Shown here: positions 1 through 54,701 of the stretch, in pieces
How the letters are laid out: every line of letters begins with the position of its first letter
Numbering within the stretch: position 1 is the first letter of the stretch
DNA from: a virus
Reading direction: 5' to 3' (one strand)
IMG/VR virus record: IMGVR_UViG_3300045988_148989
DNA length: 54,701 bases
Translations under genes and position numbers: made by a program
The notes under the pieces: model-generated
Told to the model about the DNA's origin: nothing
Seen by the model: the letters and a program-made list of their open reading frames with translations, nothing else
Databases searched by the model: none

Positions 1-119
1 ACTTTTTTTTGCATAAAAAAGACACTCTATTGAGTGTCTAATTCTCCCACTTCTATATTACTATAATTACAAGGAATGTTATTTATATCACCTTTATAGA
101 ATATCAGTATATTTTGATG
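1..119. repeat. Terminal direct repeat, identical to 54583..54701. The window wraps around a circular or terminally redundant unit of about 54,582 bp.
   Basis: Direct comparison of the first and last 119 nt shows identity. Confidence 0.9.
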
Positions 120-1322
120 TGCCTTTGCTACTTTCCTTTTTTTGAATACATATCTTGCTCTTAATGGTATTGTTCCTAACTGTTCTAGCAATATGATTTC
201 ATTATATGTCATGAATCCATTTTTGTTGAAGCATTCTTTAGTGTAATCAATAAAGTTTCTGTAATATCCTTTCTTGTCTCTTACATCACCAACAACGAAA
301 ATTGCGAAACGATCATTCTTTACTTTTTTGCAAGAAATATCAATTATCTTTCTATACACTTCTTTAAACTGCTCATAATCCATGTTTGATATGTCTCTTT
401 CATCATCGCTATATACTTCTAAATCTGCGTAAGGTGGACAACTGAATAACAAATCAACACTATCATCTTCAACGTATAAATCAGCGTTTAAACTATCGTC
501 ACATATCCATGTTGGATTCAATCCCATCTCTTGAGCATTTAATATATTCGCTTCAATTTGTTCTTTTCTCAAGTCTATTCCTGTGTATTTATATCCTAGT
601 TTTTCTGCAACTATACCTCTTACGCTACCACCTGCAAAGCAATCAAATATACTGCCTTCATGCACATTAAACCATTTATACATAACTTCACATAAAACAG
701 GGTCAAATATGCTTGTTCCTGTTAAAGTCTTTGAACCTTGCTTTTCTGCTAGTTGCTTCAAGCCTTGACCTAATAACGCTTCATCTCGTCCAACATCACT
801 AGAAATACCAAGACTTTTCCACGCTCTCTTTCTGTCTTGCCAATACCCTTGTCTTGTATCAAATACGCTTATTGGTGGTATTAGAAATTCATCTGTTAAC
901 TTCTTGCTTGCTTCTTCCTTAATTTCTTCTTCATCTTCATTTAAAAATGACATGTCAAAATCAAATTCCAACATGTCAATATCTTGTATGTTCATTAATT
1001 CTTGCTCCAATAGATTAAAATCATAATCACTGTTCATTGTTAACTTATTATGTATGAGCCTATAGGCTTTCTTCTGCTCCTCATTCAAATGAGATAGCCT
1101 AATACATTCAACCTGTTCATACCCTAATTGTTTCAATGCTTCATGTCTTCCATGCCCTTCAATGATTACATTGTTTTCATCAATTGCTATTGGATCGTTG
1201 TTATTAAATTCAATTATAGATTTCTTAATCTGCTCAATCTGTTCTTTTGGGTGTTCCTTTGCGTTATTTTCATATGGTATTAAATCATCAATATTCAATA
1301 CTTCTATTTCCAATAAAAACAC
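27..1322 (-). CDS. ParB-like nuclease N-terminal domain fused to a DNA methyltransferase (N6A/N4C type, SPPY motif).
   Basis: 431 aa. The N-terminus shows ParB-N/Srx-like features (IPYENNAKEHP, GHGRHEA). The C-terminal half carries MTase motif I (DCFAGGSVRG) and motif IV (SCPPY). Confidence 0.75.
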   Translation of the reverse strand: MFLLEIEVLNIDDLIPYENNAKEHPKEQIEQIKKSIIEFNNNDPIAIDENNVIIEGHGRHEALKQLGYEQVECIRLSHLNEEQKKAYRLIHNKLTMNSDYDFNLLEQELMNIQDIDMLEFDFDMSFLNEDEEEIKEEASKKLTDEFLIPPISVFDTRQGYWQDRKRAWKSLGISSDVGRDEALLGQGLKQLAEKQGSKTLTGTSIFDPVLCEVMYKWFNVHEGSIFDCFAGGSVRGIVAEKLGYKYTGIDLRKEQIEANILNAQEMGLNPTWICDDSLNADLYVEDDSVDLLFSCPPYADLEVYSDDERDISNMDYEQFKEVYRKIIDISCKKVKNDRFAIFVVGDVRDKKGYYRNFIDYTKECFNKNGFMTYNEIILLEQLGTIPLRARYVFKKRKVAKAHQNILIFYKGDINNIPCNYSNIEVGELDTQ

Positions 1323-2180: not shown

Positions 2181-3548
2181 CTAATAGTCTAATTGTTTCA
2201 ACAATTGTATAAGTTCTTCTTTATCTTTTTTGTATTCCTCAATGCTCTTGCCTGTCAAATCTTTATATTTGTTTGAAGTTTGTTCTGCTAAATCTGTCTG
2301 ACCGCATTTAACTTGTACATCATAGATTTTGATAAGTTCATTTGTTGAAAATTCGGGTTTACTTTCATCTTCGTTTTTTTCTTTATCAAGCCATTTTGGA
2401 GTTGGTTCTTTTCTAACATTGTTAGGTTTTGGCTTATCCTGTTCTCTTGATAACCAATTGTTTATAAATCGTTTAATACCTCTTTTAGTTTTTCTTTTTG
2501 TAGGATTTGCATTTAACCACCCTTTCATCTTCCTTAATTCTTGCATGATATCAACATTGGGATATAATTCTTCATATTCATTAAAATCATTTTGAGTAAC
2601 ATCATATAAAGTTTTATCATTCAAAGTTAATTGAATAATTGATGGTTCAATACGATTTTCTAAATCGTTTTGAACAATAATATCTTTTTCTTTATTCTTT
2701 TCTTTATTCTCTATATCTCTATACTCTATACTCTTATCTCTATACTCTTGTGTTACATCACCTATTACATTATTGTTACGGTGTAACGTTTCGTTACTAT
2801 CAATGTAATAATCAATCGAGTTTAATATATCTTCATCTATCTTTTTTCCTGCGTGAATATTACTATGACAACCCCTACATAAGGTTATCATTTTATTAGT
2901 TTCATTATTTTGTGGCTTATTTTCATCATACCCATCTATATGATGAACACATAAGTTTTCTATGCTTCCACATATTGCACATTTATATTTATCTCTTTGG
3001 ATAACAACATAATAATTTCCGTTGTATCTTTTGTTATTAATATAATCTTCAATATATGGAATGTGTTGTTTTTGCTCACAATTCTTTTTTGCTCTATGTT
3101 GTTTTTGTCTAATAGCATTGCTTTTTGGTGCTTTCTTTACTTCTTGAACATTGTTATTTTCTAATAATTCTTGTTTCTTTCTCCACTCCCTAATTCTCTT
3201 TGCTCCCGATGTTTCACTGCCTACCATTTCACTAAAGTTAGCGATTGTTAAGCATGAATTTTTATCTTCATAGATTAACCCTAGTTTCTTATACAACTCT
3301 AGCGCTACAACAACAGTGTCATAATCAAAATACTTTGTATCTCTTACAATCTTATCAATGTCATAAGGTACGATCATTTCACCTATTCTTTTTTCTAAAG
3401 TGCCGTTTGTGTTTGCAGTATTTAAACATAACATCTGATACAACACCACATATTCACAACCATTCTTTTGAGATAATAGAAAATCAATTTCATCTAAACT
3501 AAAGAAATTAGTTTTCAATTTTATCCAATAAAATCTCTTTTCGCTCAT
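2181..3548 (-). CDS. Phage replisome organizer / replication initiation protein with an in-frame HNH endonuclease insertion.
   Basis: The N-terminus MSEKRFYWIKLKTNFF is typical of Phage_rep_org_N. The central HNH motif is CAICGS...CVHHIDG...N...LCRGCHSNIH. Confidence 0.6.
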   Translation of the reverse strand: MSEKRFYWIKLKTNFFSLDEIDFLLSQKNGCEYVVLYQMLCLNTANTNGTLEKRIGEMIVPYDIDKIVRDTKYFDYDTVVVALELYKKLGLIYEDKNSCLTIANFSEMVGSETSGAKRIREWRKKQELLENNNVQEVKKAPKSNAIRQKQHRAKKNCEQKQHIPYIEDYINNKRYNGNYYVVIQRDKYKCAICGSIENLCVHHIDGYDENKPQNNETNKMITLCRGCHSNIHAGKKIDEDILNSIDYYIDSNETLHRNNNVIGDVTQEYRDKSIEYRDIENKEKNKEKDIIVQNDLENRIEPSIIQLTLNDKTLYDVTQNDFNEYEELYPNVDIMQELRKMKGWLNANPTKRKTKRGIKRFINNWLSREQDKPKPNNVRKEPTPKWLDKEKNEDESKPEFSTNELIKIYDVQVKCGQTDLAEQTSNKYKDLTGKSIEEYKKDKEELIQLLKQLDY

Positions 3549-12083: not shown

Positions 12084-12670
12084 TTTATAAACCACACTTT
12101 TCCATGATCTGCTTTCACATCTCTTTGTAGATATACATAATATGCTCCATGTAATGTATGTGCTATATCACTTGTGCTACAGTCATATGAGTAGATATTG
12201 AAATCTCCATCAATATGCATTACATATTCAGCATTTTTTGGTTCTTCTGTTGGTGTATCAGAAATTAATACATCAGTATCTCCATCACCATATCCATTGG
12301 AAATATTAAATTGAAAACTATCATTTCCGATTTTTACACAACCAACATCACTATAAGTTTTCACTACTTTAAACGGCTTGATCTCCTTCAAATCCTCATT
12401 TTTGAGGATTTCAATATATTTATGAGTATCAGCAATAAATGCAAATCCACTTTGAACGATCCAACATAATCTTCCATCAAAATTATTATTTTTGATTTCA
12501 TCAAAATTAATAATTTCAAAATTTGAATTAAGTTTTAAGTAATCCAATGTGTTTAGCATTGGCTTTTTGCCATTACTTAAATCATATAGACAACGAAATA
12601 TCTCACTGTTTTCTTTTTTTCCTTCTCCGATTATCATAATAAAATCATCATTAACTCTGTAAGTATTCAT
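12074..12670 (-). CDS. Hypothetical protein in its own transcription unit (moron-like).
   Basis: 198 aa with its own promoter and terminator. Confidence 0.5.
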   Translation of the reverse strand: MNTYRVNDDFIMIIGEGKKENSEIFRCLYDLSNGKKPMLNTLDYLKLNSNFEIINFDEIKNNNFDGRLCWIVQSGFAFIADTHKYIEILKNEDLKEIKPFKVVKTYSDVGCVKIGNDSFQFNISNGYGDGDTDVLISDTPTEEPKNAEYVMHIDGDFNIYSYDCSTSDIAHTLHGAYYVYLQRDVKADHGKVWFIKEC

Positions 12671-12714
12671 ATTCTTTTCTCCTTAGGGGGTTACCCTTTT
12701 CTTTCTACAAGTAA

Positions 12715-12743
12715 ATTATACTATATGTATTACATATAGTCAA
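12715..12743 (-). promoter_or_regulatory. Promoter of the conserved family: TTGACT-N17-TATAAT with the palindrome ATATGTAATACATAT in the spacer.
   Basis: Read on the minus strand, followed by the AAGGAG RBS of 12074..12670. Confidence 0.65.
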
Positions 12744-12761
12744 GCATTTTTAAACTTTTTT

Positions 12762-12793
12762 TAACAAAAATAAAAGGAGTGAATCATCACTCC
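12762..12793 (-). terminator. Intrinsic terminator.
   Basis: GGAGTGA-tgat-TCACTCC plus TTTTATTTTTG on the minus strand. Confidence 0.6.
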
Positions 12794-12797
12794 ATAA

Positions 12798-13106
12798 TTA
12801 GAATACAAAAGTATATCCCTTGTATTCATTATTCACTTTTTCAATCTCAGCGCTCATTTCATTAAGGACTTTTGAAAGTCTTTTCATAGCGCATGTGTCT
12901 AAACCAACTAAATTGGTAAAAGTTAAACAGAACTCCACATTGTAAGTCTGATTAATATTCAATTTTTCACCTTTTAACTGCACACGTGCAATTCTAATGC
13001 CTAGGCTATTTTTGAACAAGCACATTTCTAACTTGTCTCTCAAGTCTTTCTTGATTTCGCTTACTTCTTTAAATGTCATTCTTTTTAATAGTTCTTCGTT
13101 TGTCAT
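12798..13106 (-). CDS. Hypothetical protein (moron-like unit).
   Basis: 102-aa ORF flanked by a promoter and a terminator. Confidence 0.5.
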   Translation of the reverse strand: MTNEELLKRMTFKEVSEIKKDLRDKLEMCLFKNSLGIRIARVQLKGEKLNINQTYNVEFCLTFTNLVGLDTCAMKRLSKVLNEMSAEIEKVNNEYKGYTFVF

Positions 13107-13150
13107 AATTAATCTCCTTTAGGGGGTTGCCCTTTCTTCTTTACAAGTAT

Positions 13151-13179
13151 ATTGTATATGTATTACATATAAATGTCAA
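13151..13179 (-). promoter_or_regulatory. Promoter of the conserved family: TTGACA-N17-TACAAT with the palindrome in the spacer.
   Basis: Minus-strand reading upstream of 12798..13106. Confidence 0.65.
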
Positions 13180-13208
13180 GCGCATATAGCAAATTTTTAT
13201 GATTTTTT

Positions 13209-13235
13209 TCAATAAAAAAAGCACTTGTTAGTGCT
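13209..13235 (-). terminator. Intrinsic terminator.
   Basis: AGCAC-taacaa-GTGCT plus TTTTTTATTG on the minus strand. Confidence 0.55.
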
Positions 13236-13554
13236 TTGCTCTTTCTGCTCTTAATAGCAGTTTTAATTCATTTATTTTCTTTTTTTGATTGATACACATT
13301 TCTCTATACCTTTGTGCATCTGCATCATTTAAAATACCACTTTTCTTATACTCCTTATTTCTTTTTCTTAGGTTCTTATTTTCATATTTGAGCCTTTTGA
13401 TTTCCTTTTCTAAGTCTCCTATTTCATCTAAAAGACCATCATAGTCTTTTTCTAATCGTTCTACATACTCTTTATAATACTTATACTTTTCTGTAGTAAC
13501 GATAGCATTCAATTCTTTATCGTTGTATTCCATATTATAATCCTCCGTATTCAA
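13228..13554 (-). CDS. Hypothetical coiled-coil protein.
   Basis: 108 aa, rich in K/E heptads. Confidence 0.45.
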   Translation of the reverse strand: MNTEDYNMEYNDKELNAIVTTEKYKYYKEYVERLEKDYDGLLDEIGDLEKEIKRLKYENKNLRKRNKEYKKSGILNDADAQRYREMCINQKKKINELKLLLRAERAKH

Positions 13555-13720
13555 TTAAAAGATATGAGTTAATCAAAAAGATTATTGGTAATCCAATCAT
13601 GAATAATAATGATGTAAAACAGATGTCAAAATCTTGAATAGTTAACATCATAATACAAATTATTGAATTGATAATAAGAAGTAGGTTTGTCACCCACTTT
13701 TTGAATCTTAATTTCTTCAT
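13535..13720 (-). CDS. Small membrane protein.
   Basis: 61 aa with two predicted TM helices. Confidence 0.4.
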   Translation of the reverse strand: MKKLRFKKWVTNLLLIINSIICIMMLTIQDFDICFTSLLFMIGLPIIFLINSYLLIEYGGL

Positions 13721-13941
13721 ACTTTATCCCTCTTTTCTTTATAACAACGTTCGCATAAAACGGTTCTTGTAAATGACTTAAAGCCTATAGGCTCTACGAC
13801 ATAGTACATTTTACCATCTCCATAATAATCACAAACAAGATCTACAATCCTTACATCAAAATCACCATCACCAAGTCCATCATCTAATTTTACTTGCTCA
13901 CCAATTTTAAAATACTTCATTTTTTTGCTCTCCTTTTCCAT
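13717..13941 (-). CDS. Hypothetical protein.
   Basis: 74-aa ORF. Confidence 0.4.
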   Translation of the reverse strand: MEKESKKMKYFKIGEQVKLDDGLGDGDFDVRIVDLVCDYYGDGKMYYVVEPIGFKSFTRTVLCERCYKEKRDKV

Positions 13942-14761: not shown

Positions 14762-14790
14762 ATTATACTATATGTATTACATATAATCAA
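14762..14790 (-). promoter_or_regulatory. Promoter of the conserved family: TTGATT-N17-TATAAT with the palindrome.
   Basis: Minus-strand reading, followed by the conserved GTACTTGTAAAG leader. Confidence 0.65.
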
Positions 14791-39962: not shown

Positions 39963-40175
39963 TTCAATTTTTTAACAATTAAAAAAGACAGTGAATATTT
40001 CACTGCCCTTTTTAGGAAAAACGTTTATACGCTTCTCAATTTGGGAAAAAAGTGTTTTGTTTGTCTCGTACCAAATCTAAGAACACTAATAACGATGGTA
40101 CACCTAGAAGGTTCTGCCCCTCCGTTTATCCCTTATAAGGAGACCACTCTACTATTGAGTTATAGGTGTATACGG

Positions 40176-40249
40176 TGTTGAATTGAGGATTCGAACCCCT
40201 GTCCTCTAGTCTCCACGACTAGATATTCTACCTTTGAACCATATCCAAC
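40176..40249 (-). tRNA. tRNA-like gene with a non-canonical anticodon arm (anticodon possibly UGG/Pro if the loop is 7 nt).
   Basis: The reverse complement reads GTTGGAT...GGGGTTCGAATCCTC AATTCAAC A. It has a 7-bp acceptor stem, a perfect GTTCGAATC T-loop and GG in the D-loop. The anticodon hairpin TCTAGTC-GTGGA-GACTAGA has a 7-bp stem and a 5-nt loop. Confidence 0.5.
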
Positions 40250-40608: not shown

Positions 40609-40637
40609 ATTATACTATATGTATTACATACATTCAA
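40609..40637 (-). promoter_or_regulatory. Promoter of the conserved family: TTGAAT-N17-TATAAT with the palindrome in the spacer.
   Basis: Minus-strand reading. Confidence 0.6.
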
Positions 40638-42044: not shown

Positions 42045-42291
42045 TTTTATTGCCCTCCTTATTTATAATGCATTGAATTACTATTCCAAACCCTCTTGAG
42101 GTTCTTGTAACTCCTAAATGTGTTACAGTTCTATCGCCTACTTTTTTATCTATAAAACACTTATCATTTATTAAATCTTTTTTATACGCACAAACAAAAT
42201 AACCATCTTCTCTTATAGTCATTACTACAGCAGTTGCTTCATTACTCATTGTTTCCAATACTTCATTTACTCTCATGCTCTTCAACTCCAC
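42034..42291 (-). CDS. Hypothetical protein.
   Basis: 85-aa ORF. Confidence 0.4.
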   Translation of the reverse strand: MELKSMRVNEVLETMSNEATAVVMTIREDGYFVCAYKKDLINDKCFIDKKVGDRTVTHLGVTRTSRGFGIVIQCIINKEGNKNDN

Positions 42292-42832
42292 AATCTTTTT
42301 CGCAATTTTTTAATAACTCTGCGATTGATCTTGGTTCTTTGTCATTCCATGAAATGAATAAGAACATATCTTCGCATAAATTTAAATTATCGGAATCAAT
42401 TAAATTTTCCCAAGTTTTTCCGTCTTTCTTTGGTGCATACTCATATACATATAGGTTATCGTTATAATCTCTTGCAATATAGTTGCGATTTTTATATAAG
42501 CAGTGCTTTAAGATGTCTCGCTCAAATTTTGTCAACTTAATTTTTTCTTTAATTTGTTCTTTCTCAAATTCAATAGTTACGATATTTGATGCATTGATTA
42601 ATAAAGGTTCTTCTATTGTTGGCTTGATTGTTCTATAGCCTACCGTATCATTGCAACAAAATTCATATTCACTATAAATTTCAATTGCTTCATTTTCTTT
42701 AAGTTTTTCTTTCATTTGTTTAATGTGCTCATTAGGATTAAAACATTCTTTTTTAATTAAATATTCATCACCGTTAACCATTTCAATAGTTACATTTAAA
42801 TTAGTCATACTTATTCGCCTTCCTTTACCCAC
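42263..42832 (-). CDS. Member 3 of an intragenomic three-paralog family (conserved C-terminus W.D.EP.SI..LLKNCE).
   Basis: 189 aa. The C-terminal 60 aa align to 44217..44684 and 44888..45358. The N-terminal MVNGDEY segment aligns to 45362..45637. Confidence 0.5.
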   Translation of the reverse strand: MGKGRRISMTNLNVTIEMVNGDEYLIKKECFNPNEHIKQMKEKLKENEAIEIYSEYEFCCNDTVGYRTIKPTIEEPLLINASNIVTIEFEKEQIKEKIKLTKFERDILKHCLYKNRNYIARDYNDNLYVYEYAPKKDGKTWENLIDSDNLNLCEDMFLFISWNDKEPRSIAELLKNCEKDCGVEEHESK

Positions 42833-44024: not shown

Positions 44025-44227
44025 TACCCTCTCTTTTTAATCTCGTTTTCAAAATCTTCTCTATTTTCAAAATTAGGATAACCTTTTGCAATCGCTCTTA
44101 TAAAAATGCCTGTTATCTCTTTTATTTCTTCTTTAAATTCTTCATCATTCTCACATTCACATTTTATTTCTTCTAAAAATTCTGCATTTGTCATTTCATT
44201 ATGTTCAGTATATTTTTCATTCATCAT
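44021..44227 (-). CDS. Hypothetical protein (start trimmed to MMNEKY after an AAGGTGG RBS).
   Basis: The 95-aa track ORF overlaps its upstream neighbour by 92 nt. The RBS supports the internal start. Confidence 0.35.
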   Translation of the reverse strand: MMNEKYTEHNEMTNAEFLEEIKCECENDEEFKEEIKEITGIFIRAIAKGYPNFENREDFENEIKKRGY

Positions 44228-44684
44228 CAACCACCTTGCAGTTATTGAGTAATTTTTTGATTGACTTAGGTTCTTCATCTTTCCATTGAACAAATTGAAA
44301 TAAGTCATTAATTACATCAAAAGTAATATAAGTTTCGCAATTGTACCACATGCCACCATTTTTTTGAGGAGGACACTTTCCCTTATGCATATACAAATAT
44401 CCGCCAATTCCTCTTGTGAGATACCTGTAATCTTTTTCATAAAATAACTTTAGTAATAAATATTCTAATCTAGTTAATTTAACAGGTGGTTCTCTATATT
44501 CTGAAATAAGCCACCTTGTTTTACTTGCATCACACGTACCATCATCAAATAAACAACCACGGCATTGCTCTAAATCATTACATTTTATAATTTTAGTTGG
44601 ATTATCTGCTCTAATTGCAAACTGTTTTCTATCTTCTAAAAGTGCTAATATATCTTTTCTATACTTTTCTCCATTAGTCATCAT
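44217..44684 (-). CDS. Member 2 of the three-paralog family (start trimmed to MMTNGEKY after GAAGGAG).
   Basis: N-terminal Cys cluster and the C-terminus WKDEEPKSIKKLLNNCKVV. Confidence 0.5.
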   Translation of the reverse strand: MMTNGEKYRKDILALLEDRKQFAIRADNPTKIIKCNDLEQCRGCLFDDGTCDASKTRWLISEYREPPVKLTRLEYLLLKLFYEKDYRYLTRGIGGYLYMHKGKCPPQKNGGMWYNCETYITFDVINDLFQFVQWKDEEPKSIKKLLNNCKVVDDE

Positions 44685-44901
44685 CTTCTTCTCCTTCATC
44701 TGTACTAAGTATGCTTTCAATAAATTCGTCACGTTCAAACTTAATTTTATCAATAACATAAGTTAGTTTTTTTTCTCCTGTTAGAACATTGCAAAGGCTA
44801 TACATATCGCATCTTTTGCAATCATCATGAGATTTGCAATAATTTAATAATCCACTAATTGCGACAAATTGAGCAATATCATCTGTTTTAAGCATTTCCA
44901 A
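44674..44901 (-). CDS. Hypothetical acidic-tailed Cys-containing protein.
   Basis: 75 aa. Confidence 0.4.
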   Translation of the reverse strand: MEMLKTDDIAQFVAISGLLNYCKSHDDCKRCDMYSLCNVLTGEKKLTYVIDKIKFERDEFIESILSTDEGEEDDD

Positions 44902-45358
44902 TTACCTCACAATTTTTTAATAATTCTTCTATTGATGTAGGTTCTGCATCTTCCCATTTAATAAATTCAAATAATTCATTGAATAAAGTTAAATCATGTG
45001 AATAAATTTGATTCTTTTTGACGTCACAATCCCAAATATCATTATCTTTTTTTGGTTTATACCAAAATGAAAATAAATTGCCATCCTTATCTCTAGCGAT
45101 ATATCCAAATTCTATGAATTTCAAAATCTCATATTCAAGTCTATTTAATTTAATAGGATCTTTATTTTCAGAAATAAACCATTTTAATTTTGCAACATTG
45201 CATGATGGTTCATCTACTTTTCTATTTTCTTGACTAAATAAACATTCATCACAAAACCTTGCACCACATTCTACGATTTTTCTATCACGTTCATTAAATC
45301 CAAAATCGCAATTCTTGATTTTTAATATATCATCTATGTACTTTTCAATATTCATCAT
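44888..45358 (-). CDS. Member 1 of the three-paralog family.
   Basis: 156 aa with the C-terminus WEDAEPTSIEELLKNCEVI. Confidence 0.5.
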   Translation of the reverse strand: MMNIEKYIDDILKIKNCDFGFNERDRKIVECGARFCDECLFSQENRKVDEPSCNVAKLKWFISENKDPIKLNRLEYEILKFIEFGYIARDKDGNLFSFWYKPKKDNDIWDCDVKKNQIYSHDLTLFNELFEFIKWEDAEPTSIEELLKNCEVIGNA

Positions 45359-46764: not shown

Positions 46765-47973
46765 TTAAAACAACTTCATTCTAGGATCGCTCCCATTCGT
46801 TTCTCTTTTATATTGCATATACGCTTCTGAACTTTTAGGAGAAAAACCCAATCCTCTTAGCCAATAATCATTTCTTAATATTGATTTGCATATCTTGCGA
46901 TAACTTGGAATATCTTTTTTCTTTTCTATGTAATAATCTGCTTCATCGGGTATACCATCATGGTAACAATTATCTTCCCAATATTTTATGTATTTATCTA
47001 TTTGATATTGATAGTGCTTTTTTGTTTTTGGTGGCATTGAATTTATTAATAATTCATAATAACTTTTCCATGTATGCCCTTTGGGTTTTGAAATTTTGTT
47101 ATATCCATTTATGTTTCCTGTCTCATTAATATACAACGCTCCACTATTTGCACCATTAACACGTTTTACAACCTTGCCCCATGTATTAGGTTCAATCAAA
47201 TGGAATAACCATAACCCTCTTCTTTGGTCATCTCCGTATGGTTGGCATATTCTCATTTGGCTTAATTTTAATCCTGCTTCATGCATATAATCATATAATT
47301 TATTGTATGGTTTATCTTTGTTCTTACCTTGATATGTCCATATATCGCTTACTTTCCAATCATAAATAGGATATACATTATAAACATGTTCACTTGCTCT
47401 TGTTGTATACATCTTACTATCTTTAGTTTCTTTTCTTGAATTTGCAATGGTTCTATATCTATTTAAACTTTCATCACTTCTTATACCAACAAAGTTTGCC
47501 GTTGTCTTTCCTTGTGAATACCATTCACCAAACAAAGGAACGAACTCCTCAAATTCCATACCATCTCTAAAGAACGGAAAATAGTTTATATCATTTATAC
47601 AATCTTTTGGCATTTGTCTAATCCATATATCTTTTTGATCACTGTCCCAACATTTCCAAAATGGTTCATATACACTTACTGCATTTCTTAAATGTATCGG
47701 TAAACATATCCAAAACCATTTTGAATTTTCTTTATACATTTCTTTCATTGTTAAAGCGTGATTTATAGTTATATCATATTGACCTTCTAAATCTATCAAA
47801 ATAACACCTACAACCTTATTTCTTTTAATTGCTTCTTGCATAACCATGTGCAACATTACAGTGCTATCTTTTCCACCGCTAAAACTAACATATATTCTTT
47901 CAAAGTTATCAAATGTCCATGATATTCTTTGTTTAGTTGCTTCATAAACATTTATTCCTATTCCTTTTTTCAT
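46765..47973 (-). CDS. IbrA-like PAPS-reductase-family (PP-loop, DUF3440-like) protein, copy 2.
   Basis: 402 aa with the PP-loop SFSGGKDS near the N-terminus. Paralogous to 50062..51333. Confidence 0.7.
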   Translation of the reverse strand: MKKGIGINVYEATKQRISWTFDNFERIYVSFSGGKDSTVMLHMVMQEAIKRNKVVGVILIDLEGQYDITINHALTMKEMYKENSKWFWICLPIHLRNAVSVYEPFWKCWDSDQKDIWIRQMPKDCINDINYFPFFRDGMEFEEFVPLFGEWYSQGKTTANFVGIRSDESLNRYRTIANSRKETKDSKMYTTRASEHVYNVYPIYDWKVSDIWTYQGKNKDKPYNKLYDYMHEAGLKLSQMRICQPYGDDQRRGLWLFHLIEPNTWGKVVKRVNGANSGALYINETGNINGYNKISKPKGHTWKSYYELLINSMPPKTKKHYQYQIDKYIKYWEDNCYHDGIPDEADYYIEKKKDIPSYRKICKSILRNDYWLRGLGFSPKSSEAYMQYKRETNGSDPRMKLF

Positions 47974-48368
47974 ACCATTTCACCTAAATCAAATAAAGAT
48001 ATTTGCCCTTGGTGTCTCCTTACCCAATTTGTAATAATTTCATTTGCTATCTTGTTTGCTTGTTCTCTTTGATTGTCTGTAAGCAATCCCCACCCTTCTC
48101 TTGTTTCGTCTTCATGAACGTTTGCGTATATACTACAACATGCTTGACCTAACCACGCTTTTTTATTTATTTTATCATTTGATAAATTATACTCTGTCGC
48201 ATTTTTCCATTTGCTTACTACTGTTTCCATTGCTTTACGGCACGTTTCTTTATCTCCTAATATTTCACACGCTCTCTTTACTCTCTCATTTCTATCATTT
48301 TTGTTTTCTCTATACATGCCATTTTGAAAATCTTCCATTTCTTGATATTGATGAAATATCCTTTTCAT
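47970..48368 (-). CDS. Hypothetical protein between IbrB-like copy 2 and IbrA-like copy 2.
   Basis: 132 aa with no recognisable motif. Confidence 0.45.
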   Translation of the reverse strand: MKRIFHQYQEMEDFQNGMYRENKNDRNERVKRACEILGDKETCRKAMETVVSKWKNATEYNLSNDKINKKAWLGQACCSIYANVHEDETREGWGLLTDNQREQANKIANEIITNWVRRHQGQISLFDLGEMV

Positions 48369-49006
48369 TATTCAATCACATCACTTTCATTAACTTCCCA
48401 TGCTTCACTAAATTCTTCATCTTGAAACATTTCTGCCAATCCATACACTTGAGATAATCTTAATATTTCATCTTGATCTAATCCCAATTCTTTAGAAATC
48501 CTTTTATCTGTCCAATTTCTTCTTTTCAAATCAACTACTATTTGGCTCATTCCATCTATTGTATGTTTTCCCCTTGCTCTATTGTGCCTAATGGTTGAAG
48601 CAATTCTATCACCTTTATCTTTTCTATTTTCGTTTATAACAACTACAGGCAAATATCCTTTTACTCTCTTTTTAATATCTTCATATTCTTTCCCAACTCT
48701 GTTTCTATGAAATCCATCAACAACTTCATAAATACCATTATTCTCCCATACAACTATTGGTTGTGTATATCCATCTTCTTTAATTGATGTATGTAATAGT
48801 TCCATTTCGGGTGGAGCAACAACATTTGGATTGTAATCATTTTGCTTAACTAAATCTTGTTTTACCCATTTGATACATTCAACGGGTTCATAATTAAAAG
48901 GACTAACTTCTTTCAATCTTTCTTTTATGTAATTTATTGATTCTATTCTTTTATCAATATCCATTGATTTTAAAGAATCAATTATTTCATCTATCTTTCC
49001 TTTCAT
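48368..49006 (-). CDS. IbrB-like ParB/Srx-domain protein, copy 2.
   Basis: 212 aa. VDGFHR (the ParB-N DGxHR motif) and ASTIRHNRARG are shared with copy 1. Confidence 0.65.
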   Translation of the reverse strand: MKGKIDEIIDSLKSMDIDKRIESINYIKERLKEVSPFNYEPVECIKWVKQDLVKQNDYNPNVVAPPEMELLHTSIKEDGYTQPIVVWENNGIYEVVDGFHRNRVGKEYEDIKKRVKGYLPVVVINENRKDKGDRIASTIRHNRARGKHTIDGMSQIVVDLKRRNWTDKRISKELGLDQDEILRLSQVYGLAEMFQDEEFSEAWEVNESDVIE

Positions 49007-49015
49007 TATTTTTTA

Positions 49016-49525
49016 TCACTCCCAACTTTTAGAAAATTCCTTATCTTTGAATAAACTTGCTAACCCACTAATCTGTTTCAATCTTAATAACTCTTCTGCA
49101 TCCATACCAATGTTTTTCATAATCCAAGCATCACTCATACCACTACTAACTAAATCTGCAACAATGTTTGTCATTAATTCAATATCATGGCTTCCTCTTG
49201 CTCTATTATGTCTAATTGTTGAAGCCATTCTATTAGATATATCTTTATCAATCGTTACAACAGGTAAACAACCACCTTCACGTTCATATATATCTTTATG
49301 ATTTAACATAGTTGTATATCTATGAAATCCATCAACAATTTCATATTTATCTTCATCTTTCAAGTAATAGCATACAATAGGCATTGTATAACCATCTTCT
49401 AAAATAGACTTATATAATAAATCCATTTCGGGTTTTGCAACATGATTTGGGTTATATGAATTTGCTTGTATTTTATCAATTGGTACTCTTTTAACGTTAT
49501 AAACAGGGCTTACGAATCCTTCCAT
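49016..49525 (-). CDS. IbrB-like ParB/Srx-domain protein, copy 1 (start trimmed to MEGFVSP after AAGGAAGG).
   Basis: IVDGFHRY and ASTIRHNRARG. Confidence 0.65.
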   Translation of the reverse strand: MEGFVSPVYNVKRVPIDKIQANSYNPNHVAKPEMDLLYKSILEDGYTMPIVCYYLKDEDKYEIVDGFHRYTTMLNHKDIYEREGGCLPVVTIDKDISNRMASTIRHNRARGSHDIELMTNIVADLVSSGMSDAWIMKNIGMDAEELLRLKQISGLASLFKDKEFSKSWE

Positions 49526-49527
49526 TT

Positions 49528-50061
49528 TTATTTTTCCTTCCTTTTTAACCTTGCACATCTCTTGTATCTCTTATCCAAAAAATAATAATTATTCAAAATC
49601 TCTATTTCATCATTTATAGATTTTAATTTATGGACAGACCTTTTACTTTCTATCCTTCCTTCTAATATGATGTATTCTACATCACATTCATATAATGCTT
49701 TTTCTATATCATGTATTAAACTATCTCCACCACAATCATATATTTCGGGTATTACTCTTCTGAAAACAACAATATCAATTTTATTCTTAATTAATATATC
49801 TCTAAATTGAGATAATGTATTTTCATTGATTTTCATATTTACTATATTTTGATATATAGACCTATCACAATAATATTTGCTTGATTCAATACCTATAACA
49901 TTGAATTGCTTTGATAGCCTATGTGATAGTAATCCATAGCAACAACAAATATCTAAAATGTTTGATCCTATTGTGTTGCTAGTCAAATAGAATATATCAT
50001 TATGTATTTTTGGATATATCCCATATTTGAATTGTTTTAAATATTTATCATCATCAAACAT
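49528..50061 (-). CDS. Hypothetical protein with a degenerate class-I SAM-methyltransferase-like Rossmann motif.
   Basis: 177 aa. ILDICCCYGLL resembles motif I (hhDhGxGxG with G to C changes). VIGIESS resembles post-I and IDIVVF resembles motif II. Confidence 0.3.
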   Translation of the reverse strand: MFDDDKYLKQFKYGIYPKIHNDIFYLTSNTIGSNILDICCCYGLLSHRLSKQFNVIGIESSKYYCDRSIYQNIVNMKINENTLSQFRDILIKNKIDIVVFRRVIPEIYDCGGDSLIHDIEKALYECDVEYIILEGRIESKRSVHKLKSINDEIEILNNYYFLDKRYKRCARLKRKEK

Positions 50062-51333
50062 TTATAAAATTTTGCTATACCTTTCTACTGCTCTTTTTCT
50101 CTTTGTCAATTCGCTCTTCGTTTGAGCAAATCCCATATATTTACAATAATAATCATTTTTAATAATACAAATACACATTCTTTTATATGTAGGTAACTCT
50201 TTGAAATTCTTGCAATCTGTATCATCTAAATATTCATCAAATGCAACAACTTCTTTTGTTGTATGTGGTTTTATTCTTCCTTTTCTTTCACAAGGAATAT
50301 TATTGTTTTCCAAATACTCTAATGTATCATCACTAACAACACATCCTTTTTCTCTCCATACCTTAATTGAAGTATTTAACTTATCTAAATAATGTTGTCT
50401 TGTGTTTTCATCAAGGGTATCAAGCAAGAAATAACAATACTCTTTCCAAGTGAAATGTTTTGGCTTGGTAATTGATTTCCACCCCATTGCAGTAGTTCCA
50501 CCATACAATCCTGCAAAGTTTACACCATTAACTCTACCTATCATTTTCCCCCAATTGTTAGGATCAATAACTTTGTATAGTTTTAATGAATGTATCCCAC
50601 AATCATTAAAAGGACTTGCAACTCTCATTTGGTCAACGTTTAATCCTGCATTATAGAATAAGTCATACAATTTGTTATATGGCTTCTCAAATTTACAGTT
50701 ATAAATCCAAACATCATCTACATTCCAATCATAAATAATGTATGCTTTATCCTCGTTTATCCATTTGAGACTTTTGTATTTTCTTACTTTATCACTTGCG
50801 ATTGCTCTAAAACGGTTTAAACTTTCATCCGTTCTTATCCCAACCACATTTACAGTGTTTGGATGCTTCTTTTTAAACCATTCAAAGAAGCCTTTAGGAA
50901 TTTCAAAATCATCTTTTTTTATTTCGAATTCACAATTGTCTTCATTGATTACATAATCATATGTAGGCATTTCACGAACCCAAATATCTTTTTTTGATTT
51001 TTCCCAAGGAATCCAATACCCCTTATCCATTCTACATGCACATTGTGCGTATATTGGTAAACACAACCAATATCTTTCAATGTCATTGAAACGCTTAAAC
51101 GTTTCATCAACATAATCCGTTGTCATTTGGTATTGTGCTTCATAGTCCATATGAACCATTGCTAATTTATGAAGCATGTTATGCTTCTTTGCATAGTCAT
51201 AGCACATTTCCAAGCACACACCACTGTCCTTACCACCACTAAACGAAACAAGAACAGTGTCAAATTCATTAAATATGTACTCAATACGCTCTTGCGTTGC
51301 TTCGTACACATTTTTATCTATGTACTTTTTCAT
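50062..51333 (-). CDS. IbrA-like PAPS-reductase-family (PP-loop, DUF3440-like) protein, copy 1 (start trimmed to MKKYIDKNVY after AAAGGAG).
   Basis: VLVSFSGGKDSGV PP-loop. Paralogous to 46765..47973 over the full length. Confidence 0.7.
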   Translation of the reverse strand: MKKYIDKNVYEATQERIEYIFNEFDTVLVSFSGGKDSGVCLEMCYDYAKKHNMLHKLAMVHMDYEAQYQMTTDYVDETFKRFNDIERYWLCLPIYAQCACRMDKGYWIPWEKSKKDIWVREMPTYDYVINEDNCEFEIKKDDFEIPKGFFEWFKKKHPNTVNVVGIRTDESLNRFRAIASDKVRKYKSLKWINEDKAYIIYDWNVDDVWIYNCKFEKPYNKLYDLFYNAGLNVDQMRVASPFNDCGIHSLKLYKVIDPNNWGKMIGRVNGVNFAGLYGGTTAMGWKSITKPKHFTWKEYCYFLLDTLDENTRQHYLDKLNTSIKVWREKGCVVSDDTLEYLENNNIPCERKGRIKPHTTKEVVAFDEYLDDTDCKNFKELPTYKRMCICIIKNDYYCKYMGFAQTKSELTKRKRAVERYSKIL

Positions 51334-51520
51334 ATATTCTCCTTTCAATACAAATAAGAAACGGACTAAATAAGCCCATTTCTTATTTTTTAGTAGATTA
51401 CTTAAATAATCTACTATAAGCATAGCGATAACTACGCTTTTGAAGTGGATGCTTCACAATGAAGTACCACCAACCAATTCTCTTTTTTCTTTTCATTTGT
51501 GTATCCTCCTTACAACCACT

Positions 51521-51549
51521 ATTATATATGTATTACTTATAAATGTCAA
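51521..51549 (-). promoter_or_regulatory. Promoter of the conserved family: TTGACA-N17-TATAAT with an imperfect palindrome in the spacer.
   Basis: Minus-strand reading, upstream of a 33-aa basic leader peptide ORF and IbrA-like copy 1. Confidence 0.6.
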
Positions 51550-51915: not shown

Positions 51916-51943
51916 CACAAGCGCTATGCTTGTGCTATTTTTT
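51914..51943 (+). terminator. Plus-strand-oriented intrinsic terminator-like hairpin amid minus-strand genes.
   Basis: AGCACAAGC-gctat-GCTTGTGCT followed by ATTTTTT on the plus strand, with no U-run on the minus strand. Confidence 0.45.
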
Positions 51944-52217
51944 CAACTTGTGATGAATCAAATAATGAAGCGCTAACCATAATGAACTTGCTTTCTTCCT
52001 TATTATCTTCATCTTTCTTTCTATTTCTAACCTTTTTCCAAAGTTTAGTTTTAATAACTGCCTTTGACCCTTTTTTGACTTGGTAGCCACTATATTTCCA
52101 TTCTTGATATGTTTTGTATGGTAATGCTCCAAACTTTCCAATTATTTCTTCAACTTGTTGTTCTGTTAATAATTCTCTTGTAATTACTTCGTTTGCTACG
52201 ATTTCTAGATTTGTCAT
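51924..52217 (-). CDS. Hypothetical protein, possibly an ArdC-N-like ssDNA-binding domain.
   Basis: 97 aa. YKTYQEWKYSGYQVKKGSKAV resembles the ArdC N-terminal signature. Confidence 0.35.
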   Translation of the reverse strand: MTNLEIVANEVITRELLTEQQVEEIIGKFGALPYKTYQEWKYSGYQVKKGSKAVIKTKLWKKVRNRKKDEDNKEESKFIMVSASLFDSSQVEKIAQA

Positions 52218-52245: not shown

Positions 52246-52274
52246 ATTATAGCATATGTGATACATATATACAA
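52246..52274 (-). promoter_or_regulatory. Promoter of the conserved family: TTGTAT-N17-TATAAT with the palindrome ATATGTATCACATAT in the spacer.
   Basis: Minus-strand reading. Confidence 0.55.
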
Positions 52275-52303: not shown

Positions 52304-53545
52304 CTAAATGTCTTTTATCCATTTAGTTCCTTCTTTCTGCAACTTCTGTTTAATCAAATTATCAAGCGTGCTTTTCTTTCTTATGTTTTCTAGTACTAAA
52401 TCTGTAATACCTAAATCAGTGAGAATATATGTATATTTGATGTCTCTTTCTTGTCCTAGTCTCTTGATTCTATATTTTGATTGTTCTAGTTTTGAATACT
52501 CAAAATTGATACTTGAATATACTATTTCATTGCAAAATTGAAGATTTAAAGAGAAAGCACCACAACCATATGTCATTAATAAAGGCTTTTGATCGTTCTT
52601 GAATACTTCTATAACTTTATTACGATTATTCGTATTTCCTGTTATCACATAACAATCTATCTTGCTTTGATAGTATTCAATCTCTTTTAAATAATTACAG
52701 AATACAATCACTTGTTTATTTTCTATGTACTTTATAACTTCATCATTCTTTCTTTCGTATGTTGATGCTATAACGTTCAATGATTGCAACATATTTATAA
52801 TTGCTTCACTTGAGCCATATTCAAGAACCTTGTCTAGACTTTCTTCTTTGATTCTGTAATATTCATCATCATCAATATAAGAAACCCATTTATAAGATTC
52901 ATCTTCATTCTTGCTAAATTCCAAATCACATTGATAGATATAAGGACTAACCATCTTGTTTAGCACATCAGCGTTTACTTCGCTGAATTTATAAAAGGTG
53001 TGTTCTCTACTTTCGTATTTCTTCTTATATCTTATTTTGTTAAAGAATTTGTATCTAAACTCATTCTCATTCATTCCGATAATTTTATGACTTAAAAATT
53101 CCATCTGATTGTATAGATCAAATTCATCTTTTACTATTGGTGTACCATTCAACACTAAAGCATAAGAACAAAGGTTTCTTAATTCCATTGTTCTCTTTGT
53201 TCTTTTTGTGTTTCCGTTCTTAATAAAAATGCTTTCATCTGCAATAATGAAAGCGTTCTTTTTTGTTTTCATATTTTTCAATAATTCTAAGTATTTAACA
53301 TCACTACTTGAAATAGTCTCATATCCTACTATTTCATAATCGCAACGAATACCCCATTTTTTTATTTCCTTCTCTATGTTCCCTTTTGTTGAAAATGGGC
53401 AAAGATAAAGCATAAAGTCAGTATCTGTATTATTCACTAGTTCTAAAGCGACTCTTGTTTTACCACTTCCCATTTTCATAAACAAAGCACCAACACGCAT
53501 TTTAGAAAACTTATCAAATGCTAGTTTTTGATTTACTGTAATCAT
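52304..53545 (-). CDS. SF2 helicase, SNF2-like.
   Basis: 413 aa with motif I GSGKT, motif II DESIF and motif VI QSKYRIKRLGQ. Confidence 0.7.
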   Translation of the reverse strand: MITVNQKLAFDKFSKMRVGALFMKMGSGKTRVALELVNNTDTDFMLYLCPFSTKGNIEKEIKKWGIRCDYEIVGYETISSSDVKYLELLKNMKTKKNAFIIADESIFIKNGNTKRTKRTMELRNLCSYALVLNGTPIVKDEFDLYNQMEFLSHKIIGMNENEFRYKFFNKIRYKKKYESREHTFYKFSEVNADVLNKMVSPYIYQCDLEFSKNEDESYKWVSYIDDDEYYRIKEESLDKVLEYGSSEAIINMLQSLNVIASTYERKNDEVIKYIENKQVIVFCNYLKEIEYYQSKIDCYVITGNTNNRNKVIEVFKNDQKPLLMTYGCGAFSLNLQFCNEIVYSSINFEYSKLEQSKYRIKRLGQERDIKYTYILTDLGITDLVLENIRKKSTLDNLIKQKLQKEGTKWIKDI

Positions 53546-54533: not shown

Positions 54534-54562
54534 ATTATAATATATGTATCACTTATATTCAA
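54534..54562 (-). promoter_or_regulatory. Promoter of the conserved family: TTGAAT-N17-TATAAT with an imperfect palindrome.
   Basis: Minus-strand reading. It is preceded on the minus strand by the terminator in the terminal repeat. Confidence 0.6.
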
Positions 54563-54582: not shown

Positions 54583-54701
54583 ACTTTTTTTTGCATAAAA
54601 AAGACACTCTATTGAGTGTCTAATTCTCCCACTTCTATATTACTATAATTACAAGGAATGTTATTTATATCACCTTTATAGAATATCAGTATATTTTGAT
54701 G
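54583..54701. repeat. Second copy of the 119-bp terminal overlap (identical to 1..119).
   Basis: Same as above. Confidence 0.9.
54592..54621 (-). terminator. Intrinsic terminator ending the recombination/replication operon (second copy at 10..39).
   Basis: AGACACTC-tatt-GAGTGTCT plus TTTTTTATGC on the minus strand. It overlaps the stop of the ParB-MTase gene. Confidence 0.6.

Follow-up and report, generated by a model that had tools for sequence, protein, structure and literature searches.

Two diverged IbrA/IbrB subtypes with accessory proteins in one phage operon, a possible DNA modification locus

The proteins IbrA and IbrB of a prophage island of Escherichia coli ECOR-9 and their paralogs YbdN and YbdM of E. 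coli K-12 are encoded as pairs in which a PAPS_reduct and DUF3440 protein lies beside a ParB-N protein. Phage and plasmid homologues of the ECOR-9 pair are annotated as IbrA, IbrB or DUF3440 proteins. No biochemical study of the pair was found in the literature searched, in agreement with an earlier note on the DNA described here, which had called IbrA and IbrB biochemically uncharacterised. This DNA is the virus record IMGVR_UViG_3300045988_148989 (54,701 nucleotides, the whole of which is referred to as the window). On its minus strand, six genes running from position 51333 down to 46765 encode two IbrA and two IbrB proteins together with a predicted methyltransferase (MT) and a protein of 132 amino acids (U132). 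The window proteins carry the same invariant motifs as the proteins of ECOR-9 and K-12. Unlike the ECOR-9 pair, the window stacks two IbrA/IbrB subtypes in one operon, and each of the two cassettes contains an additional MT or U132 gene.

Parts of this arrangement are also found in other described systems. DndB/DndC (as well as SspD and BrxP) combine a PP-loop enzyme of the PAPS-reductase family with a ParB-superfamily protein of the DGxHR type, but none of DndA, DndD and DndE was annotated among the approximately 36 window open reading frames (ORFs) scanned. Podophages of Vibrio crassostreae (anti-Dnd, Piel et al.) link a PAPS-reductase domain to a methyltransferase and use it against host defence; this PAPS-domain/Dam fusion gave resistance to the host Dnd system (bioRxiv 10.1101/2021.05.05.442762). 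It is a single polypeptide with a DNA adenine methylase and has no ParB partner, DUF3440 or U132, and its likeness to the window proteins lies in the PAPS domain. No PAPS-domain/methyltransferase fusion was present among the IbrA-like tblastn matches in isolate phages at the sensitivity of this search. Modules of Bacillus (031MP002, PBC5), Arthrobacter (Laroye-like) and Mycobacterium phages share the MT family phrog_11826 and an IbrB-type ParB protein with identical invariant motifs, encoded beside a PAPS_reduct enzyme. In contrast to the window, this enzyme comprises about 365 amino acids without a detectable DUF3440, is present as a single copy without U132, and is usually encoded just before the terminase. 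DpdA/DpdB and other ParB-assisted DNA modification systems, compared by description, include a ParB-like NTPase assisting a DNA-modifying enzyme (PMC12839542), but this enzyme is a transglycosylase and not a PP-loop protein.

The six genes of the window operon are separated by at most 9 nucleotides or overlap slightly, and all six ORFs were found where the earlier note had located them. The first gene encodes IbrA1 (50062..51333, 423 amino acids), a PAPS_reduct and DUF3440 protein of the PP-loop ATP-pyrophosphatase type with a GGAG ribosome-binding site at its start at 51333. It is followed by MT (49528..50061, 177 amino acids), predicted to adopt a class-I S-adenosylmethionine (SAM)-methyltransferase fold of the small-molecule type, and by IbrB1 (49016..49525, 169 amino acids), in which a ParB/Srx N-domain (NxYNPN, DGFHR, TIRHNRARGxH) is combined with a helical C-terminal half. 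These three genes are termed cassette 1. Cassette 2 comprises the genes for IbrB2 (48368..49006, 212 amino acids), which carries an N-terminal helical extension of 40 amino acids in addition to an IbrB1-like ParB/Srx core, for U132 (47970..48368), and for IbrA2 (46765..47973, 402 amino acids), a PP-loop/DUF3440 enzyme of a subtype different from IbrA1. The MT gene had been thought to separate the two pairs; it is located inside the first pair (IbrA1-MT-IbrB1), and the U132 gene occupies the position inside the second (IbrB2-U132-IbrA2). As read from the protein comparisons, the locus is composed of two anciently diverged IbrAB subtypes lying side by side.

The earlier note had regarded the locus as a tandem duplication, which is not what the comparison with other phages indicates. 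IbrA1 shares about 52% identity with the IbrA proteins of Lactobacillus and Streptococcus phages, compared to 35% with IbrA2, and the halves of the operon stand alone elsewhere. The identity of IbrB1 and IbrB2 is 51%. In 79 related loci, which were annotated using the six window proteins, the stand-alone arrangements were IbrB2-U132-IbrA2 (14 loci), U132-IbrA2-IbrB2 (4 loci) and U132-miniA-IbrA1-IbrB1 (16 loci), where mini-A denotes a small protein described below. L007, the closest relative in IMG/VR, shares cassette 2 with the window at 99.7–100% identity, whereas its cassette 1 shows 75–80% identity and lacks MT, which indicates that the cassettes are exchanged as units. The closer relationship of IbrA1 to the IbrA of other phages, the stand-alone halves and the independent recombination together argue against a simple tandem duplication. 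The full six-gene arrangement is retained in L008 with protein identities of 67–93%, composites with a single IbrB occur in another temperate phage type (L012 and L027), and three PAPS-reductase-like genes are stacked in L035. Among the 223–229 isolate phage records with IbrA or IbrB, none contained two copies. The suggestion that the arrangement is undescribed agrees with this result but needs to be qualified, as about 20 phage genomes were deposited with annotations of the small MT beside a PAPS reductase and a ParB protein.

Both domains predicted for the IbrA proteins, PAPS_reduct and a DUF3440-like C-terminus, were assigned above the Pfam gathering cut-offs (22.5 and 25, respectively; 26.3 for ParB_N, which was likewise exceeded by both IbrB proteins). 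IbrA1 scored 41 bits for PAPS_reduct (PF01507) and 276.5 bits for DUF3440 (PF11922; E 1.2e-82), and matched phrog_2302 with an E-value of 9e-102; for IbrA2, the scores were 57 and 121.8 bits, accompanied by a very strong phrog_2302 match. The SGGKDS PP-loop, DxE, GIRxxESLxR and YPIYDW are invariant in both paralogs and 45 homologues, with about 45 invariant positions overall; S32, G34, K35, D36 and S37 of the PP-loop and at least 40 other invariant columns are kept in both window copies. The motifs pointed out before (SFSGGKDSGV/SFSGGKDSTV in IbrA, VDGFHR and ASTIRHNRARG in IbrB) are all present and fall on invariant columns of their families. Because the PP-loop is invariant, IbrA is read as an adenylylating enzyme.

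The scores for CysH models were 21.9 and 31.3 bits (TIGR00434, cut-off 165) and 14.1 and 31.6 bits (TIGR02057, cut-off 254) for the two IbrA proteins. At the position of the CysH motif SFGIQA, IbrA carries the ATP-pyrophosphatase motif SGGKDS in the alignment, and the conserved C-terminal cysteine of CysH (ECGLH) has no conserved equivalent in IbrA, the C-terminus of which is formed by DUF3440. A DCGIH sequence in IbrA1 resembles the CysH motif by chance, as it is not kept even in close orthologues and is absent from IbrA2. The similarity to DndC (PADLOC profile, E 8e-10 to 5e-9; BrxP approximately 1e-6) covers only about 60 residues, and the DndC model TIGR03183 gave 25 and 27.3 bits versus a cut-off of 290.4. 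Conserved cysteines of the IbrA family are limited to C91 and C387 (at least 90% of 45 sequences), which argues against an iron–sulfur cluster like that of DndC, whose cysteines for a 4Fe-4S cluster and additional cysteine dyad are not conserved in IbrA. With the SGGKDS loop and without hallmarks of CysH or DndC, the usual sulfur-metabolism annotation of IbrA is not supported. Weak profile matches were obtained for TilS, TtcA, LarE, CysD and FAD synthase. A single-sequence search detected no relatives of IbrA in the PDB, and the profile search gave nothing better than an E-value of 1e-3, restricted to the PP-loop. Elsewhere, the C-terminal 70 or so amino acids of IbrA2 also exist as a free-standing mini-protein.

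The two IbrB proteins were confirmed as ParB/Srx-domain proteins by ParB_N (29.5 bits for IbrB1, 27.2 bits for IbrB2) and phrog_2159 (E 2e-83 and 1e-71). Their best profile matches are the N-domains of chromosomal ParB/Noc proteins (E 6e-8), and weak matches to SerK and SbnI were also observed. IbrB lacks the canonical boxes of CTP-dependent ParB proteins: in the alignment with 4umk, 7ol9 and 6sdk, DGFHR lies opposite AGERR and NPN opposite QPR. A further invariant motif of IbrB is TIRxNRAxGxH. IbrA and IbrB co-occur nearly one-to-one in phages (226 versus 229 records, with matching host distribution). Both IbrA copies of the window adjoin an IbrB-type gene, as do those of every related locus with enough flanking sequence. 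The pairing of the subtypes is strict, with A1-B1 in at least 16 loci, A2-B2 in at least 18 loci and no crosses. As observations on the wider distribution, the IbrA query matched 728 plasmids, some with 2–3 copies, and on a Salmonella IncF plasmid (NZ_CP051369.1; L088, 7756-11187) the IbrA/IbrB genes are flanked by those of a CaiF/GrlA-family regulator and a GrlR-family protein near a fimbrial operon. IbrB1 is 88.6% identical to IbrB of Streptococcus thermophilus phage 94 (MH375594.1, 24542-25042), whereas IbrA1 shares only 40–53% identity with IbrA of S. thermophilus phages; judged by these values, IbrB1 is either much more constrained than IbrA1 or was recently transferred.

The assignment of the 177-amino-acid ORF as a methyltransferase agrees with its predicted structure, a Rossmann-like class-I fold with seven strands, and the Pfam score remained below the cut-off (16.6 versus 27). 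D37, G43 and E59 are invariant in the family and present in the window copy. Motif I (consensus D/ExGxGxG) reads DICCCYG, with a cysteine at G39, where at least 90% of the relatives have glycine. The closest structural neighbours are small-molecule C-, N-, O- and S-methyltransferases. The motif of DNA amino-methyltransferases, (D/N/S)PP(Y/F/W), is absent from MT, and the motif following strand beta4 is RRVIPE. All members of the MT family (phrog_11826) that were found adjoin a PAPS_reduct gene as well as an IbrB-type ParB gene (20 isolate phages and 20 IMG/VR contigs; for the latter, a single-sequence query found nothing and an alignment-based scan succeeded). Beyond the clade of the window, the partner enzyme of MT has no detectable DUF3440.

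U132 had no match in Pfam, PHROGs, NCBIfam or PADLOC. A profile search of the full library revealed a family of 776 cluster representatives, nearly all of them stand-alone proteins of about 130 amino acids. The structural model is all-alpha (predicted local distance difference test score (pLDDT) 86.7) with a disordered tail of low pLDDT, and the predicted structure matched no known fold. In 59 of 61 loci, U132 adjoins IbrA and/or IbrB, and the other two (L013, L041) are almost flankless on one side; the same neighbourhood is found in the cultured phages Gaia, Mwe-JY13, XCL1123 and Amjad_SA. The possibility that U132 is a diverged piece of IbrA or IbrB was rejected (hhalign probability <1%), as was EDETR as a catalytic motif, which is not kept in the homologues of Gaia, XCL1123 and Mwe-JY13.

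The C-terminus of the window U132 is ...GQISLFDLGEMV, with QISLF at residues 122-126; close relatives of the window share the QISLF tail. Both the length and the sequence of the tail change from one family member to another, and the recurring element is a Q-[LIVM]-x-[LMF]-F or QLxLxL peptide, which we take to be the consensus of the bacterial beta-clamp-binding motif (QL[SD]LF or QLxLxL). Using the strict pattern within the last 22 residues, this motif was detected in 32% of 183 U132 family members, compared to 0.9% of shuffled tails (maximum 3.8%, 500 shuffles) and 0.33% of 1802 background ORFs of the same loci, corresponding to an enrichment of approximately 35-fold and 100-fold, respectively. 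It was also present in 6/22 C-termini of the IbrA2 type and in 7/10 mini-A proteins, but not in IbrA1 (0/17) or IbrB (0/35). Mini-A is a free-standing protein of 85 amino acids with homology to the C-terminal ~70 residues of IbrA2, and accompanies U132 where IbrA is of the A1 type. It is encoded between U132 and the IbrA1-type gene in 16 viral contigs (L038-L058, e.g., L057 3726-3980), and most copies end with QLKLxL. The homology of mini-A to the C-terminal module of IbrA2 suggests that U132 works with that module.

We tentatively favour, although at less than even chances, a modification of DNA that depends on ATP, is guided by ParB, is partly tethered to replication and serves counter-defence, the substrate and chemistry being inferred. 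IbrA would be a PP-loop ATP pyrophosphatase that adenylylates its target and thus activates it for the subsequent addition of a nucleophile. The two cysteines conserved throughout the family would fit a persulfide-type transfer similar to the relay of ThiI or MnmA. IbrB could be the cognate ParB/Srx-type partner binding nucleotide and DNA, and the optional SAM-methyltransferase of cassette 1 might modify the product further. U132 of cassette 2 would be a non-enzymatic adaptor that, through its QISLF tail, keeps the enzyme at the DnaN sliding clamp and, hence, at replicating DNA. The target would most likely be the phage DNA and the role most likely protection from restriction-like or phosphorothioate-sensing defences of the host, with the stacked cassettes supplying more than one specificity. 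A DNA substrate is suggested by the co-evolving ParB-like partner, by fusions of both domains to DNA methyltransferases, by neighbouring genes of DNA metabolism and by the clamp-like tails. IbrA-type and IbrB-type domains both match Type II DNA methyltransferase profiles (PADLOC MTase_II), and ParB-N/methyltransferase fusions exist, one of them in the window genome. DNA modification by the locus is plausible, with indirect support from the tails, from the genes nearby and from the anti-Dnd role published for a phage PAPS domain. PAPS reductases are also included in Aca-regulated anti-defence operons (PMC13551039).

Several observations weigh against this interpretation. The clamp-like tail is restricted to certain clades (17% of the representatives at 50% identity) and does not occur in the homologues of Gaia, Mwe-JY13 and XCL1123. 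Neither a sulfur donor gene (cysteine desulfurase, ThiS-like) nor a nucleotide-precursor gene was found among the annotated ORFs. MT resembles small-molecule rather than DNA methyltransferases, without the (D/N/S)PP(Y/F) motif; the window copy carries cysteine at a near-invariant glycine of motif I, and the closest relatives of the window have no MT. In chromosomes and plasmids, IbrA/IbrB pairs adjoin transcription regulators, namely the LysR-type YbdO next to ybdNM in E. coli and GrlA-like and GrlR-like genes next to the Salmonella IncF pair. Finally, the sole reported IbrAB phenotype is the activation of prophage gene expression.

This phenotype leads to a different explanation, in which IbrA and IbrB are transcription co-activators or anti-silencers of phage genes. 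IbrB would bind or slide near promoters and IbrA would locally modify DNA, a nucleoid protein or RNA polymerase, so that late or silenced genes are turned on, each cassette serving its own set of promoters. Regulation of transcription is established for members of the ParB family, e.g., KorB. IbrA and IbrB owe their family name to the activation of prophage eib genes, deposited genomes use the term "co-activator of prophage gene expression", and in phages of Arthrobacter and Mycobacterium as well as in metagenomic phages the module is immediately followed by the terminase and late genes; the enterobacterial homologues lie beside the GrlA-like/GrlR-like regulators and the LysR regulator repressing ybdNM. 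We consider this explanation a serious rival, although an unlikely one, since the invariance of all catalytic PP-loop residues is unexpected for a pure scaffold, and a simple activator does not account for an accessory methyltransferase or for a clamp-binding-like adaptor. In addition, as many as three cassettes are stacked per phage, and the operon promoter shares a palindrome with promoters of the repressor region, which suggests immediate-early expression and not the timing of a late switch. If the activating mark were itself a DNA modification, this explanation would partly overlap with the favoured one. A target other than DNA, i.e., RNA (tRNA or rRNA), a small molecule or a nucleotide, appears quite improbable. 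The locus would then serve to reprogram translation, or to produce or degrade a metabolite or immune signal, IbrA acting like TilS, TtcA or ThiI, IbrB like SerK, SbnI or sulfiredoxin, and MT as a small-molecule methyltransferase. The weak profile matches of IbrA (TilS, TtcA, LarE, CysD, FAD synthase) and of IbrB (SerK, SbnI), the DGxHR in place of GERR in IbrB, the structural neighbours of MT, and the lack of sulfur or precursor pathway genes nearby among the annotated ORFs are in accordance with such a target. However, the best matches of IbrB are the DNA-binding ParB/Noc proteins, the clamp-binding-like tails point toward DNA, each of the two domains is found fused to DNA methyltransferases in other proteins, the products of the neighbouring genes act on DNA, and the sole tRNA gene of the genome, tRNA-Pro (UGG; 40174-40249, minus strand), is unlinked to the operon.

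The remaining two explanations have very little probability. Redundant or decaying copies without a joint function, left by a recent tandem duplication, would account for the presence of each gene type twice in 4.6 kb, for the substituted glycine of the window MT, and for the split IbrB2 in L005 and the fragmented IbrA and IbrB in L011. This is very improbable given that the paralogs are only 35% and 51% identical and each is closer to stand-alone cassettes of other phages, that both IbrA copies keep every invariant residue, that the six genes are conserved at 67–93% in L008, and that composite architectures recur in other lineages (L012, L027, L035). That IbrA is a true auxiliary metabolic gene product, a CysH-type PAPS reductase boosting assimilatory sulfate reduction of the host, is the explanation to which we give the least credence. 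It agrees with the PAPS_reduct score above the threshold and with the PHROG label [quoted passage not shown], but not with scores far below the TIGR00434 and TIGR02057 cut-offs, with SGGKDS instead of SFGIQA, or with the missing ECGLH cysteine; moreover, the IbrA gene is always paired with a ParB-like gene, and other sulfur-pathway genes were not seen among the annotated ORFs. The question matters, as IbrA-type "PAPS reductases" are among the most often reported viral auxiliary metabolic genes; recent papers argue for a role of viral PAPS reductases in sulfur metabolism, and ecological arguments were built on them in 2026 (PMC13369170; bioRxiv 10.64898/2026.02.18.706556). The anatomy of the locus, with its intact ATP-pyrophosphatase loop, no hallmarks of CysH or DndC, an obligate ParB partner, accessory proteins and a clamp-like tail, argues against sulfur assimilation and for a machine directed at nucleic acids.

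Extending the favoured DNA modification to the whole family, IbrA/IbrB might constitute a large unrecognised class of adenylylating DNA modification systems of phages, plasmids and chromosomes, guided by ParB and, in some clades, docked to the clamp by U132 to mark new DNA. We regard this generalization as doubtful. Its product may be a new base or backbone mark, such as a nucleotide that is thiolated and, where MT is present, S-methylated. If true, phages would stack IbrA/IbrB cassettes like orphan methylases, and what is most commonly reported as the viral metabolic gene "cysH" would encode an enzyme with an epigenetic and anti-defence function.

The IbrA/IbrB pair and the trio with MT, the latter annotated in deposited genomes, are already known. 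What appears to be new are the stacked two-subtype operon, the U132 family together with mini-A, the subtype-specific pairing and the clamp-binding-like tails, for which no describing paper was found within a limited literature search. In this analysis, MT and U132 were defined as accessory families and mini-A as a mini-domain that occurs on its own. Variants of the locus are carried by culturable phages, namely Mycobacterium phage Gaia (gp103-106), Bacillus phage 031MP002 (gp80-85), Microcystis phage Mwe-JY13 and S. thermophilus phages, which, together with ybdNM of E. coli, make the function of IbrAB directly testable.

The early promoter proposed to drive the cluster (51521..51549, minus strand) was confirmed as a perfect sigma-70 consensus (TTGACA-17-TATAAT, score 12/12) and is the single exact match in the window. 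Its spacer contains a 17-bp near-palindrome, TATATGTAATACATATA, at 51525-51541. This sequence occurs at seven window sites (12722-12738, 13155-13171, 14769-14785, 40616-40632, 51525-51541, 52253-52269 and 54541-54557), giving 12 strand matches compared to 0.11 expected, and three of the sites adjoin the repressor and recombinase region. Similar promoters were identified at 13179 and 12743, and at all sites checked (12743, 13179 and 51549) the palindrome lies within the spacer of a sigma-70-like promoter. The palindrome is probably the operator of a phage regulator controlling many early transcription units; no observation connects it with IbrB in the manner of a parS site. Between the promoter and IbrA1, a basic leader ORF is predicted (51398..51496, minus strand; MKRKKRIGWWYF...) with an AGGAGG ribosome-binding site; it encodes 32 amino acids, not 33 as assumed before. 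The leader between 51334 and 51416 (minus strand) contains two strong hairpins (51416-51391 and 51388-51352) 5' of the ribosome-binding site of IbrA1, with a free energy of −31.4 kcal/mol (z −6.9), and none of 200 shuffled sequences was as stable. An Rfam search of the leader revealed no match to a known RNA element. The 32-codon ORF and the hairpins may represent a leader-peptide or attenuator arrangement. They recur almost unchanged in L004 and L007 but are missing from L008.

Directly upstream of the operon, a protein of 97 amino acids similar to the ArdC-N anti-restriction family is encoded (51924..52217, minus strand; phrog_25027, E 1e-20; phrog_7245 "anti-restriction protein", E 5e-8), the orthologue of which in L008 has a weak ArdcN Pfam match. 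The palindrome site at 52253-52269 is located just upstream of this gene. The next upstream neighbour is a SNF2-type helicase gene (52304..53545, minus strand; phrog_62, E 2e-61), and SNF2-rel_dom and Helicase_C domains were identified in its L008 orthologue. Further upstream, across the circular junction, the gene at 27..1322 (minus strand) encodes a ParB-N domain fused to an N6/N4 DNA methyltransferase, as had been recognized before (phrog_498, E 3e-129); its order relative to the operon is also kept in L008.

The window ends in an exact direct repeat of 119 bp (1-119 and 54583-54701), leaving 54,582 bp of unique sequence, which indicates a complete circular or circularly permuted phage genome. 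No near-identical DNA was found in isolate phages. The phage is a temperate phage of gut Clostridia. The G+C content is approximately 30%, the annotated genes include those for a large serine recombinase, a CI-like helix-turn-helix protein, ERF, SSB, NinB, RusA and the large terminase, and Clostridia genomes carry the nearest homologues of the U132 gene among bacterial genome assemblies (53–58% identical). In L008, a gene with TROVE/Ro60 and vWA domains, which has no counterpart in the window, is located about 1 kb downstream of IbrA2 (12349-13797). A replisome-organizer/DnaD-like protein of the window (2181-3548, minus strand) has an apparent HNH endonuclease domain inserted at residues ~148-270. 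Within 3 kb downstream of the operon, three paralogous phrog_22292 ORFs (function unknown) are located on the minus strand (42263-42832, 44217-44759 and 44888-45358).

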